In this document: positions 25,597-28,667 of the stretch, piece by piece
How the letters are laid out: every line of letters begins with the position of its first letter
Numbering within the stretch: the first letter of the stretch is position 1
Assembly (NCBI GenBank): GCA_029262755.1
Contig: JAJCYU010000015.1
Location: forward strand, 1 to 33,848
DNA: 33,848 nucleotides
Source of the DNA: Anaerolineae bacterium
GTDB lineage: Bacteria > Chloroflexota > Anaerolineae > Epilineales > Epilineaceae
Direction: 5' to 3'
Translations under genes and position numbers: made by a program
The notes under the pieces: model-generated
Told to the model about the DNA's origin: nothing
What the model saw: only the letters and a program-made list of their open reading frames with translations
Database searches by the model: none

Positions 25597-27486
25597 CTAC
25601 AGATTCACATCCAAGGTCTCGTCCGCCGCGCAGCCCGGGCCGAGCGTGCCCGCGTCCACGTCGGCGCGCACGCGATCACGGTGCGCGATGTAGCTGGGGC
25701 CGATCGCCTCCTCCTCCGCGACGGCGCGCCCCTCGGCGCGCTCGGCGTCGCGGAGGGCGCGCACGGCTGCGGCAAGGTCGCAGGTAGCGAGTAGTAGGTC
25801 CGCCCTTTGCACGTGGAAGACCGCGTCACGGGCGTGCCGATCGCCGATCTCGATCGCGCGCTCGAAGTGCGCGAGCGCCGCCGCGCTCGCCGCGCTCGCG
25901 GCCTCGGCATCCGCGTTGGCGGCAGCGGTGCGGCTCTCGATGCCGCCGATGACGCCCAACATGCCCGCGGACTCGGCCGCCCAGTCGCGTAGCTGCTTGC
26001 GGCGCAGGCCGTCGCCCTCGTCGTAGGCTGCGATCACGTTCTCGAAGGGCTCGATCGTCGCCGACCAATCCTGGTCCCCGGCCGCGACGGCAAGGCACAC
26101 GGCCGCTCGGCCGGCGCTGAAATCCGCCTTGACCGCGACGTCGCTTTCGGGAGGTTGATGTGCGGCCTCCTTCGCGGCGCCGAAGCGGGTGATCGCGTTC
26201 TCCAGCTCGTCCACGTCCACGGTTTCCGCTCGGCAGTTCGCGTCTCCGCGAGCGCGTTGGAACGCCACCTCCGCCGCGCCGAGTTGGGCGCGCGCGTATT
26301 CCGGATCCAGCGCCAGCGCGTCGTCGAACCACCGGCCCGCTTGGGTGATGCGATCCGGCCGGTCCCTACCGAGGTCCTGCAGCACTACGTTGCCGAGGAA
26401 GAGGTACACGACCTCCTTGCCTTCGTGCTCCGGCCACCCGCTGTCGCTCGCGACCTGGGCCAAGAGACCCTCGGCTCGCTCGTACTGACGGTCCGCGAAG
26501 TAGGAGAGCGCGACCACGAAGGAGGCGAGCAGCCCGGTGCGCACGCGGATCGCCTCGCCCAGCGCGCCGCCGCCCGTGATCGTATCGGGGTCCTCGATCG
26601 GTGTACCGAGGGCGTGCGAGCCGGCGAACTCGCCCGCGTCGCGCAGGCGGCGCGGATCGTCCGTGACGTGGAACGCGGGGACCAAGCGGCTGGCCACGAT
26701 GCCGTCGCCGGTGTCGGTGACCACGTGCGTGCCGTAGACGAGGATGTCGGCGTCGATGCGCTTCGAAAGGCGCGCTGCACTCCGTGCGCGCGCATCCGCA
26801 TCGAGGCCGACGACGGGGCACAACAGGCTCGGTCCGCGTACCGCGATCGCGTGCGGCACGGCGTCCGTCCCGCCGCGCGTGGCCAGCAGCTGTCGCAGCT
26901 CCTGGTCCAGATGCGCGGCCACCTGTTTGGCCAACCGGTGGCCGTCCAACGCGCGGCGCGAAGAGCCGTCCGCCGTGCCGCGGCCGAACGACGCTACTGC
27001 GACACGCAGCGCGCCGTCTATCGGCGCGCGGCAGGAACGCCAATAGGGCACGCCCAGCGCAAGCGCCGCCAAACCGGCGGTGAAGGCGGCGCCGGCAAGC
27101 GCGATCGTCCGTCGGCGGCGCGTCGCGGGATCGGCAGGCAGGTCGTCTGGATCGAGGGCGGCCAGGCGGGCGCGTAGGTCGGTGAAGGCGGCTTGGCGGG
27201 CGGGGTCGAGGCCGACGCCCTCCTCGGCCAGCGCGGCCAGGAGATCGTCCAGCAACGCGGAGCCGGCCTCGGGGTGCGCCTGGCTGAGGCACAGGCTGAC
27301 CAGGCGCGCGGTGAAGACCCGAGGCGCGCCTTCCCAGGCAAGCTCGCCGGCCAGGTCCGCGCGGTCGAGGAGCAGCGGGCGCAGCCACTCGCGCCGCACG
27401 TCGAGCAGCTCGAAATGCGGGGTGAGGGTGGCGACGAGGTCTTTGGCGAGCGACCGGATCGGGCCGCGCTTCGCTCCGAGGGTCAT
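25597..27486 (-). CDS. Single-pass membrane TPR protein with N-terminal EAD-like domain (629 aa)
   Basis: N-terminal helical ~105 aa with LAWEGAPRVFTARLV; RRRR then TM IALAGAAFTAGLAALALGVPYW; VAVASF alpha/beta domain; TPRs (ALALDPEYARAQLG). Confidence 0.8.
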   Translation of the reverse strand: MTLGAKRGPIRSLAKDLVATLTPHFELLDVRREWLRPLLLDRADLAGELAWEGAPRVFTARLVSLCLSQAHPEAGSALLDDLLAALAEEGVGLDPARQAAFTDLRARLAALDPDDLPADPATRRRRTIALAGAAFTAGLAALALGVPYWRSCRAPIDGALRVAVASFGRGTADGSSRRALDGHRLAKQVAAHLDQELRQLLATRGGTDAVPHAIAVRGPSLLCPVVGLDADARARSAARLSKRIDADILVYGTHVVTDTGDGIVASRLVPAFHVTDDPRRLRDAGEFAGSHALGTPIEDPDTITGGGALGEAIRVRTGLLASFVVALSYFADRQYERAEGLLAQVASDSGWPEHEGKEVVYLFLGNVVLQDLGRDRPDRITQAGRWFDDALALDPEYARAQLGAAEVAFQRARGDANCRAETVDVDELENAITRFGAAKEAAHQPPESDVAVKADFSAGRAAVCLAVAAGDQDWSATIEPFENVIAAYDEGDGLRRKQLRDWAAESAGMLGVIGGIESRTAAANADAEAASAASAAALAHFERAIEIGDRHARDAVFHVQRADLLLATCDLAAAVRALRDAERAEGRAVAEEEAIGPSYIAHRDRVRADVDAGTLGPGCAADETLDVNL

Positions 27487-27492
27487 GGCGGC

Positions 27493-27502
27493 ATGATACC
27501 AT
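27493..27502. promoter_or_regulatory. Overlapping divergent extended -10 promoters, leaderless mRNAs
   Basis: Plus strand: TGaTACCAT (27494-27502), 7 nt, ATG 27510. Minus strand: TGgTATCAT (27501-27493), 6 nt, ATG 27486. No SD on either side. Confidence 0.7.
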
Positions 27503-27509
27503 CCACAGC

Positions 27510-28667
27510 ATGAGCATCGCCCTGGACCGCGAACAGCTGCGTGCGATCACCGCCATCCTCGTGGCCTTGCCGGAGTTCGGCACGGCGCGCAAGCGGCGGC
27601 GCCTCGTTGCGGCCGCGTTGGCGGGCACCGAGCGGGGCGGCGTGCTCTTGTCACGCTTGGACCTGGAGGGCTCGCCGCGCTCCGTGGCGGGCGAGGTCGT
27701 GCTCGGGCTCGCGGAGTTCGGGCAGGTGGCCTATGACCGCGAGGCCATCGCCGTGCTGCTGGACCACGTGCGCGAGCTGGTCGACGAGGAGGACGCGGCG
27801 GTCCTAGCGAACGTGCTCCGAGCCCACGACGGCGGTCCGCTCGCGGCGCGCTCCCGACCGCTCGACCCCACGGACGAGGCGGACTGGCGCGGCGGCGGCG
27901 AGGTCGCGGGCCACCTGGAGCGCATCCTCGGCGAGAACACCCTGCGCGACGTGCGCTATCTGCGTCGGGCCGCGCGCGCGGCCGAGGCCGTCGTGCGACT
28001 CAAGGTGGCGGGTGGTGAGCGGGCGGGCTCGGTAGGGACGGGCTTCTTGGTGGGCGACGGATTGATCATGACCAATCACCACGTCGTCGCGTCGCCGGAG
28101 GAGGCCTCCGTCACGGAGGTCGCGTTCCACTACGAGCTGGACGAGGCGGGGCGCCCGCGCGCTGTGGTGCCAGCCACGGTCGTGGAGGGCGGCGCGTTCG
28201 CGACGGACGCGGCGTTGGATGTGACGGTGTTCGAGATCGCGGGCGTTGGCAATGGCGGGATTGATGGCGACAGCAGCAGTCCGGTCGATGGTCACGTCGC
28301 CGGTGCGCGCGCCGTGCCCGCGCCGCTCATCCTCTCTGGTCGACGCGTGCGCGCGGATGAGCGCGTCGCGATCGTGCAGCATCCGGGGGGGCACCTGAAG
28401 AAGATCTCGTTGCAGCACAACCATGTGGTCTTCGCGGATGCGCGCACGGTGCAGTACACGACGGCCACGGAGCCGGGTTCGTCGGGGGCGCCCGTGCTCG
28501 ACGACGAGCTCGCGGTGGTCGCCGTGCACCACAGCGGCGGCATCCTCAGCGATCCGGCCACGGCGGGCAAGCGCATCTACTGCAATGGCGGCACGAGCGC
28601 ACGCGCGATCCGTGCAATGCTCGCCGAGACCGCTCCCGCGATCGCGGCGCGGTTGGCGGGGGCGTAG
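27510..28667 (+). CDS. EAD8-like domain fused to trypsin-like serine protease (385 aa)
   Basis: N-terminal LPEF...RRRLV...LDLEGSP...FGQVAY; GTGFLV, TNHHV (His), LDVTV (Asp), IVQHPGG, GSSGAP (Ser); no signal peptide. Confidence 0.88.
   Translation: MSIALDREQLRAITAILVALPEFGTARKRRRLVAAALAGTERGGVLLSRLDLEGSPRSVAGEVVLGLAEFGQVAYDREAIAVLLDHVRELVDEEDAAVLANVLRAHDGGPLAARSRPLDPTDEADWRGGGEVAGHLERILGENTLRDVRYLRRAARAAEAVVRLKVAGGERAGSVGTGFLVGDGLIMTNHHVVASPEEASVTEVAFHYELDEAGRPRAVVPATVVEGGAFATDAALDVTVFEIAGVGNGGIDGDSSSPVDGHVAGARAVPAPLILSGRRVRADERVAIVQHPGGHLKKISLQHNHVVFADARTVQYTTATEPGSSGAPVLDDELAVVAVHHSGGILSDPATAGKRIYCNGGTSARAIRAMLAETAPAIAARLAGA

Follow-up and report, generated by a model that had tools for sequence, protein, structure and literature searches.

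Effector-associated domains (EADs) follow a rule in which one copy of the domain is carried by a core or sensor protein and a second copy by an effector, often encoded in an adjacent gene (Kaur 2020, PMC7159879). EAD8, which is counted among the effector-recruiting EADs (PMC7159879), has been described on iSTAND2 proteins and on STAND proteins that carry an FGE-sulfatase (FGS) domain (Kaur 2021, PMC8195603), and an EAD8-nSTAND1-FGE (STAND-FGE) protein is encoded near an EAD8-trypsin at the ‘DGR 6’ locus (PMC10907252). MoxR-vWA ternary systems also carry EAD8 on core components of the iSTAND or VMAP type, with an EAD8-trypsin encoded adjacently (PMC7159879). The EAD-coupled systems found described in PMC7159879 and PMC8195603 all centre on cytoplasmic nucleoside triphosphatase (NTPase) switches, and the NTPase-centred core that bears or adjoins the EAD is MoxR-vWA with VMAP or iSTAND, a STAND NTPase, or DO-GTPase/GAP1. 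Here, we analysed a 33,848-nucleotide stretch of DNA (hereafter the window; contig JAJCYU010000015.1 of the Anaerolineae bacterium assembly GCA_029262755.1), which holds two neighbouring genes, R and T, that each encode an EAD8 domain. The genome is that of a filamentous-type member of the Chloroflexota, and its assembly of 5.06 Mb in 428 contigs is 84% complete.

Gene R (25597..27486, minus strand) is an open reading frame (ORF) of 629 aa encoding, in order, EAD8, a transmembrane (TM) helix, an α/β domain and a TPR region, and gene T (27510..28667, plus strand) is an ORF of 385 aa encoding EAD8, a linker and a Trypsin_2 domain. The genes are divergent, and the sequence between their ATG codons is a spacer of 23 bp (27487..27509). 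A first-pass annotation, made from the sequence alone, had described this head-to-head pair and suggested that an extracytoplasmic TPR sensor recruits and activates a cytoplasmic protease through EAD-EAD contact; its observations were confirmed by the work described below, and its interpretation is partly supported. We consider it somewhat more probable than not that R and T form an NTPase-less, transmembrane, outside-in variant of the EAD-coupled effector systems, a reading based on domain content, topology signals, adjacency, and the fusion of the R ectodomain to proteases and TIR across its family. Binding between the two EAD8 domains, activation by proximity, a ligand and an outcome for the cell are further parts of this reading, which we infer. 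R and T are classed as a variant, and not a member, of the EAD-coupled NTP-dependent systems because the defining NTPase is missing.

The presence of EAD-type domains at both N-termini, as the first-pass annotation had it, was borne out by the Pfam family PF19961, for which the curated cut-off is 27 bits. The EAD8 of T (residues 12-104; 27543..27821, plus strand) scores 60.3 bits, and that of R (residues 14-108; 27163..27447, minus strand) scores 28.7 bits, with the same R coordinates returned when the whole genome was searched. This search matched three places, namely R, T and a weak one on contig C32, while 0 of 14 control genomes matched. Since two of the genome’s three PF19961 places are these neighbouring genes, and none was found in the controls, the co-occurrence of EAD8 in R and T exceeds what chance would give.

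We then compared the pair with the systems in which an EAD8-STAND-FGS protein (nSTAND1 or NACHT) accompanies an EAD8-trypsin, as outlined in PMC8195603 and PMC10907252 and found here also at loci L028/L105, L103 and L107. One of these, L028 (the same 8312-base contig as L105), belongs to genome G002 of the same family as the window genome, and contains EAD8-nSTAND1-FGS, EAD8-trypsin and EAD8-NACHT-FGS. T belongs to the same effector family as the trypsins of these loci (38-47% identity in EAD8, with the full architecture in common), and R and T show the same two-copy EAD8 pattern, a sensor copy and an effector copy in adjacent genes. The R EAD8 is nearest to that of the NACHT-FGS proteins; across 76 aa it is 39% identical to the L028 copy. 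When partner ORFs and trypsin ORFs from the locus survey described below were compared by BLASTP, the R EAD8 matched 6 of 93 partners, NACHT-FGS proteins being the best, and 0 of 74 trypsins, whereas the T EAD8 matched 72 of 74 trypsins and 11 of 93 partners. The EAD8 copies of R and T are thus not mutual closest relatives but differing subtypes, and by these sequence comparisons the R domain is classed as the sensor-side kind and the T domain as the effector-side kind, as in canonical loci like L028. Together, the EAD8 subtype and the L028 layout argue that R occupies the place held elsewhere by a STAND sensor. Unlike the STAND-FGS sensors, R lacks both an NTPase and an FGS/C-type-lectin sensor domain and carries instead a TM helix, a TolB-N-like domain and TPR, so that sensing by R would be extracytoplasmic and would proceed without NTP-dependent oligomerisation. 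R and T resemble the MoxR-vWA systems in the same pairing of EAD8 proteins, and differ from them in that R spans the membrane. The simplest history would be one in which a sensor-side EAD8 exchanged its STAND-FGS body for a TM-TolB-N-like-TPR body and the trypsin gene was retained.

The Trypsin_2 domain of T covers residues 176-339 (28035..28526, plus strand; Pfam PF13365, 72.7 bits), and all 44 aligned homologues share its triad, H191, D237 and S325. T has no hydrophobic segment, with a maximum 19-residue hydropathy of 1.23, and is predicted to be a soluble cytoplasmic trypsin-like protease with an intact triad, as had been noted at first. Homologues numbered 244 at E<=0.001, and the best 120 all had both PF13365 and PF19961. 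Between the two domains lies a linker motif (W126, E137, G141-E142 and T144-L145, ‘ILGENTL’; 27885..27947, plus strand), the columns of which were likewise invariant in 44 of 44 sequences; it may be a processing or regulatory site. A periplasmic, HtrA/DegP/MarP-like identity for T was rejected, as the NCBIfam scores were far below threshold (MarP 25.9 against a cut-off of 250; HtrA 17-19 against 416-470), a TM segment is lacking and the N-terminus is EAD8. PADLOC-DB 2.0 returned weak matches of the protease part only (RT-Protease_XI at 28 bits) for T, and 0 families for R. Among other trypsins, proteins of ~449 aa (P0092, P0096-P0099, P0102 and others) carry both EAD7 and EAD8, and could link one protease to two adaptor networks, including the EAD7-type receptors of the R ectodomain family described below.

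The structure of R was modelled from an 18-row alignment with a mean predicted local distance difference test (pLDDT) score of 79.8, the model being confident over residues 155-620 and poor over EAD8, where helices at 9-40, 56-70, 72-90 and 95-109 have pLDDT values of 35-67. R has one hydrophobic window, a TM helix at ~residues 128-146 (27049..27105, minus strand; mean hydropathy 2.06; model helix 123-153), which lies right after RRRR as originally described. The membrane-proximal α/β domain (~residues 160-300; 26587..27009, minus strand) was folded separately (pLDDT 88.5), because a fold search with the whole of R returned TPR proteins only. Its matches by VIA were 8z5n_5 (Z 8.4, 119 aligned, root mean square deviation (rmsd) 3.7), PelC 5t10_A (Z 7.8), TolB 1c5k_A (Z 7.5) and LpoB (Z 6.0), all modest Z values; the best Foldseek match was again 8z5n (E 6e-4), and a language-model look-up gave the same TolB-N-type lead at 0.86-0.87. 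All of the top structural matches are envelope proteins, and the domain is tentatively described as TolB-N/PelC/LpoB/CsgG-like. The remainder of R is a predicted TPR superhelix (~residues 308-612; 25651..26565, minus strand; model pLDDT >85), which matched TPR proteins in Foldseek; in VIA it resembled 4wng_A (Z 18.7, rmsd 3.5, 259 aligned) and designed consensus TPR proteins such as 9qhb (Z 16.5), similarities that are generic. Pfam TPR models scored sub-threshold only (TPR_2 13.5 bits, TPR_19 13.1 bits), and NCBIfam had no family for R.

The orientation of R was evaluated across 151 sequences of its family, 130 of which have a single TM window. In these 130, the 15 residues flanking the TM contain on average 2.69 K+R on the N-terminal side versus 1.29 on the C-terminal side, and the N-terminal side is the richer in 90, equal in 26 and poorer in 14. 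Cys418 and Cys464, which lie in the TPR region, are both present in 82 of the 151 sequences, both absent in 67, and found alone in 2, the pattern of covariation expected of a disulfide. Many relatives have CHAT, TIR or protein kinase domains fused before the TM helix, and these domains work in the cytoplasm. Because the positive-inside rule, the covarying Cys pair, the envelope-type fold and the cytoplasmic enzymes of relatives all place the C-terminal part of R outside, an N-in/C-out topology with extracytoplasmic α/β and TPR parts is supported, in keeping with the Cys-containing, extracytoplasmic TPR region of the first-pass annotation.

The R ectodomain belongs to a large family. A word-indexed search with R, in which homologues matched at E 1e-41 to 1e-13 over 55-80% of R, brought up 7 proteins, including P0002, which is collinear with R (62% identity over 97% of its length) and has the same architecture with EAD8, and P0003, which has a CHAT N-terminus and matches R at E 1.4e-41; two members of the wider family, P0264 and P0268, match R at ~E 5e-43 in pairwise BLAST. 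Among 61 related genomes, 13 were matched by R (its own genome counted), all but one through the ectodomain. The N-termini of the 12 receptor homologues in relatives were EAD7 in 6 and fused CHAT in 4, while in 2 CHAT was encoded as a separate upstream ORF. A profile built from 18 sequences was searched against 1.84 billion representatives, giving 11,765 matches at E<=0.001, of which 1352 representative clusters reach E<=1e-30. For the top 150 members, the region before the TM was classed with local hidden Markov models built from sequences collected in the analysis, and Pfam was run on 39 of the 41 members still unassigned, P0004 and P0007 being scanned separately. The N-terminal region was CHAT in 43, TIR in 11, EAD7 in 4, a Ser/Thr protein kinase in 3, directly fused Trypsin_2 in 2 (P0264 and P0268) and EAD8 in 1 (P0002); it was shorter than 70 residues in 49, had at least 70 residues with no family match in 25, and in the remaining 12 a crude scan gave no TM window.

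Across the R family, one common sensor thus carries, at its cytoplasmic end, either an effector enzyme or an EAD adaptor. The direct fusions of CHAT, TIR, Trypsin_2 or kinase to TM and sensor (for example P0003, P0264, P0268, P0186 and P0266) share with R the homologous TM, α/β and TPR parts and the same N-in/C-out layout; unlike them, R has an adaptor only, and its effector is encoded by the divergent neighbouring gene. The ectodomain fusions to Trypsin_2, CHAT, TIR and kinase independently support the idea that the sensor drives the protease, and the direct fusions of Trypsin_2 and CHAT provide the strongest argument that the R EAD8 stands for a protease to be docked there. In related bacteria EAD7 appears in the same position, and in five genomes with EAD7-type receptors it is expanded to 6-25 matches per genome. 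The 24 EAD7 proteins that were scanned include EAD7-CHAT, EAD7-SIR2, EAD7-FGE, EAD7-Macro and EAD9-EAD7, and soluble EAD7-CHAT proteins (L031-L033) are present in 3 of the 5 genomes.

The EAD7- and CHAT-type receptors of relatives are directly followed by a lipoprotein gene at five loci (L018:3244-3981, L019:8632-9381, L023:6911-7639, L025:8858-9589 and L027:5693-6523). In its product, a lipobox is followed by a linker rich in Pro and Thr and by a conserved β-rich end with Cys, which is replaced by a LysM domain in the lipoprotein at L017:10192-10995; the lipoprotein may act as a co-sensor. A tblastn search for this lipoprotein in the window genome gave low-complexity matches only.

Membrane-spanning regulators with similar layouts have been described. 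The two-gene EACC1/EACC2 systems include caspases whose variable C-terminus can consist of TM helices and an extracellular PBP or CHASE2 domain (PMC7159879, PMC8195603). These systems, which the same papers propose to serve conflict in multicellular bacteria, likewise link a cytoplasmic protease through the membrane to a domain that binds ligands outside the cell. In EACC1/EACC2, protease and sensor are fused and work with an EACC component, whereas R and T are separate genes connected through EAD8, with a different ectodomain family. DdvA, a transmembrane anti-sigma factor of solved structure, carries a periplasmic TPR-CHAT module and controls a CBASS/CRISPR island (PMC11506125); it resembles R as a single-pass protein whose periplasmic TPR sensor signals to a partner in the cytoplasm, in phage defence. 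The cytoplasmic part of DdvA is, in contrast, a zinc-bound anti-sigma domain that binds a sigma factor of the extracytoplasmic function (ECF) class, and its CHAT domain is extracellular (PMC11506125). Identification of R itself as a transmembrane anti-sigma factor was rejected, since its cytoplasmic part is EAD8 and a sigma gene is not adjacent; a sigma-70 family match was found in none of the scanned neighbours of R. The sequestration logic of DdvA’s control over a defence island (PMC11506125) nonetheless offers a precedent for a different use of the same parts, in which R would be a membrane tether or inhibitor that holds T inactive through EAD8-EAD8 contact and frees it when the ectodomain is perturbed. 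The adjacency and the shared domain fit this arrangement as well, but in the Trypsin_2-, CHAT- and TIR-TM-sensor fusions an effector could be released only by proteolysis, and activation in place fits them better; together with the lack of an adjoining sigma-factor-like gene, this makes tethering quite improbable.

If R instead recruits and activates T, a wider generalisation can be offered tentatively, and we regard it as something short of probable. R and T would represent the split, adaptor-coupled form of a widespread, as yet undescribed, ‘death-receptor-like’ class of single-pass receptors, in which a disulfide-bonded TolB-N-like and TPR ectodomain senses a signal outside (a phage part, wall damage or a kin peptide) and switches on a cytoplasmic killer or signalling enzyme directly through the membrane with no NTPase, the enzyme being either fused (CHAT, TIR or trypsin) or split off and coupled through EAD7 or EAD8.

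To determine which proteins usually accompany trypsins like T, species-representative genomes were scanned with T, and 80 loci were kept, the trypsin ORF being recovered in 74. At least one further EAD8 ORF was present in the fetched flanks of 54 of these 74 loci, giving 93 partner ORFs in total, which were typed with Pfam at E<=1e-6. The largest group carried EAD8 only (29), followed by iSTAND (20), NACHT (12) and WD40 with no NTPase (8); nSTAND1, VMAP and TIR were found in 4 each, soluble TPR in 3, GUN4 in 2, FGE only in 2, and GGDEF, caspase and DUF6055 in 1 each, while 2 had no family. EAD8-iSTAND or EAD8-VMAP beside an EAD8-trypsin was the commonest context. One partner, in L122, gave a BLAST match to the R ectodomain region; it lacks a TM window, however, and carries a Walker A motif and an FGE domain. 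EAD8 proteins with a TM helix adjoin EAD8-trypsin genes in two unrelated genomes (L131:3854-5131 and L133:7044-9986), and their outer domains are not homologous to that of R, being β-rich in L131 and YD-repeat-like in L133; as judged from their sequences, membrane-bound EAD8 partners of trypsins recur but are rare.

Several results weigh against the proposed coupling of R and T. The R EAD8 exceeds the Pfam cut-off by just 1.7 bits. BLASTP of the R N-terminus against the T N-terminus gave no similarity, and hhalign aligned R 23-108 with T 21-106 weakly (E 0.0011, probability 20.8%); therefore, the likeness of the two domains lies at the profile level only, although the hhalign register pairs the very stretches, RREWLRPLL...LAWEGAPRVFTARLV and RRRLVAAAL...LDLEGSPRSVAGEVV, that the first-pass annotation had set side by side. 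Homotypic EAD-EAD binding is itself a prediction in the source papers (PMC7159879). NTPase-type modules make up 40 of the 93 partners, so that trypsins of this kind usually go with an NTPase-type protein, and the R architecture accounts for 0 of the 93. No defence-island context was apparent, as no PADLOC family reached 25 bits across 16 neighbouring window ORFs. With the genome 84% complete and in 428 contigs, an EAD8 core could be unassembled.

The pair is also rare. Of 401 genomes of the class, two contain a match to the first 155 residues of R: its own, and G002, in which these residues hit the EAD8 of the NACHT-FGS protein. No further R-type protein was found in the 399 other genomes of the class. 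Scans of genome-contig and metagenome-contig collections with R returned no relative, and a scan with P0009, which is 64% identical to T, returned just a 2003-base contig (L029) with the C-terminal half of the protease. The sole other occurrence is that of the R-like P0002 and the T-like P0008 (68% identity to T), single-member clusters that each derive from one 37,611-base contig of the same source; the two are almost certainly encoded on one contig, where they may be neighbours. The expectation that the pairing would be conserved in relatives was thus weakly borne out, by one further R-like/T-like pair and by none in the 399 class genomes. These 2 of 401 genomes and the empty contig scans suggest that the R/T architecture is rare and young.

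Some of the same results would be expected if R and T made no mutual contact, so that T serves an unassembled STAND, iSTAND or VMAP core, R recruits another protein or nothing, and their adjacency is the remnant of a rearranged STAND locus. The share of NTPase-type partners and the incomplete assembly are compatible with this, and contig C32 of the same genome encodes another candidate for docking T, a 574-aa protein (L003:226-1950) with a weak EAD8-like N-terminus (16.5-20.4 bits) and an FGS domain, with no NTPase. The C32 protein could be a second NTPase-less sensor, which is a further point against R as the dedicated partner, and its EAD8-like domain aligns slightly better with the EAD8 of T (28.9 bits) than with that of R (21.9 bits). 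The differing subtypes of the adjacent EAD8 copies might also be read in this way, but differing subtypes are the rule in the 54 loci that have both trypsin and partner. In addition, the genome search turned up no full EAD8 beyond these two, and the likely second pair, P0002 and P0008, has diverged from R and T to a similar extent (62% and 68% identity). Taking both sides together, we find an absence of contact between R and T distinctly unlikely.

If R and T are coupled, the following sequence of events could be envisaged. The outer TolB-N-like and TPR part of R would bind an envelope or extracellular ligand, and the resulting clustering or rearrangement of R would gather its cytoplasmic EAD8 domains, which would then dock the EAD8 of T. 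T would thereby be concentrated at the membrane and switched on by proximity, speculatively through cleavage in the conserved linker at ~residues 137-145. Active T would cleave cellular targets, so that the cell stops growing, dies or passes a signal downstream. An NTPase switch would not be involved, R replacing the STAND, iSTAND or VMAP proteins of known EAD8 systems. The layout resembles, by analogy only, that of the animal death receptor, adaptor and caspase-8, with an extracellular sensor, a single TM, a small cytoplasmic helical adaptor and a protease bearing the same adaptor; the death-receptor analogy for EADs was drawn in PMC7159879. Unlike caspase-8, T is trypsin-like, and neither homology nor a Death fold is claimed.

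The same mechanism might serve ordinary signalling, in which the TPR part senses a peptide or the envelope state and T processes a regulator in filament development, stress or cell-cell communication. The TPR model resembles the RRNPP peptide sensors NprR (Z 15.4), Rap (Z 14.8-15.2) and PlcR (Z 13.0), values that are generic for TPR, a histidine kinase and a response regulator come after the receptor in L027, and no defence genes lie near R and T. Ser/Thr kinases in 3 family members and short N-termini in 49 would also be in line with a signalling role. However, CHAT, TIR and trypsin dominate the fusions, and related genomes have SIR2, Macro and CHAT among their EAD partners; CHAT, SIR2, Macro-type and TIR/trypsin effectors are described as typical of conflict and cell-death systems (PMC7159879, PMC8195603). 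For these reasons, we think a role confined to ordinary signalling unlikely.

The surroundings of R and T were searched for other components. As the first-pass annotation had stated, no NTPase core adjoins the pair: no EAD-bearing NTPase core was found in the window, and the PF19961 proteins of the genome, 84% complete, are all without an NTPase. EAD8 was absent from 18 of 18 neighbouring window ORFs scanned with Pfam, and no match to MoxR (AAA), vWA, VMAP or iSTAND was found in these 18, to which the search was limited. The Pfam neighbours are an HU-HIG protein, an ion-channel fragment, a phosphoglycerate-mutase-like gene with an ATP-cone P-loop kinase, and PstB-type ABC ATPases. The P-loop proteins of the window are the ABC ATPases, the ATP-cone kinase and, ~19.5 kb off, a BTAD-NB-ARC regulator, a 1199-aa Trans_reg_C-BTAD-NB-ARC/AAA_16-TPR protein of the SARP/AfsR STAND type (2496-6095) with no EAD8. 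PADLOC gave two weak neighbour matches, a TPR model at 24.5 bits in the BTAD-NB-ARC ORF and mad8 at 17.3 bits in the ATP-cone kinase ORF. A scan of 25200-29000 showed no consensus sigma-70 promoter or terminator, and the window contains no tRNA.

Other features of the window lie outside the pair. The G+C content dips to 0.57-0.61 at 13000-19000, compared with ~0.70 around it, and four large ORFs in or just past this stretch (13127-15277, 15816-16754, 18373-19500 and 19497-22475) have no Pfam or PADLOC family; PHROGs gave a weak match for only one of them, to a head-scaffolding family. Within ORF 22475-23434, a 21-bp tandem repeat (23204-23355; 7.2 copies, 93% matches) encodes TATPGG[SP]-type units at the end of a 319-aa protein with no known family. 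A 193-aa ORF, the first 74 residues of which match the phage endonuclease family phrog_4225 (E 3.6e-11), adjoins the gene for the HU-HIG domain protein (23497-24078 and 24738-25304). In the spacer ~50 bases past the R stop codon lies an 8/16-base tandem repeat, ACCGAGCA-like, with ~3.9 copies of 16 (25487-25548). On the other side of the pair, 28921-31397 holds the phosphoglycerate-mutase-like metalloenzyme gene followed by the ATP-cone and P-loop kinase gene, which we take to resemble a 2-phosphoglycerate kinase pair; these genes are metabolic and stand apart from R and T.

Searches of open-access papers and bioRxiv, supplementary architecture tables aside, found neither an EAD on a single-pass TPR receptor nor a TolB-N-like and TPR family with CHAT, TIR or trypsin N-termini. 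In R, the docking domain known from the NTPase-centred systems is placed on a membrane receptor with an outward sensing part. If the coupling to T is true, an extracellular or envelope signal can drive adaptor-mediated recruitment of a protease in bacteria, in the layout of the animal death receptors. The locus also draws attention to a large family, 1352 representative clusters at E<=1e-30 with CHAT, TIR, trypsin or kinase fusions, whose members are candidates for controlling cell death or immunity from outside the cell.

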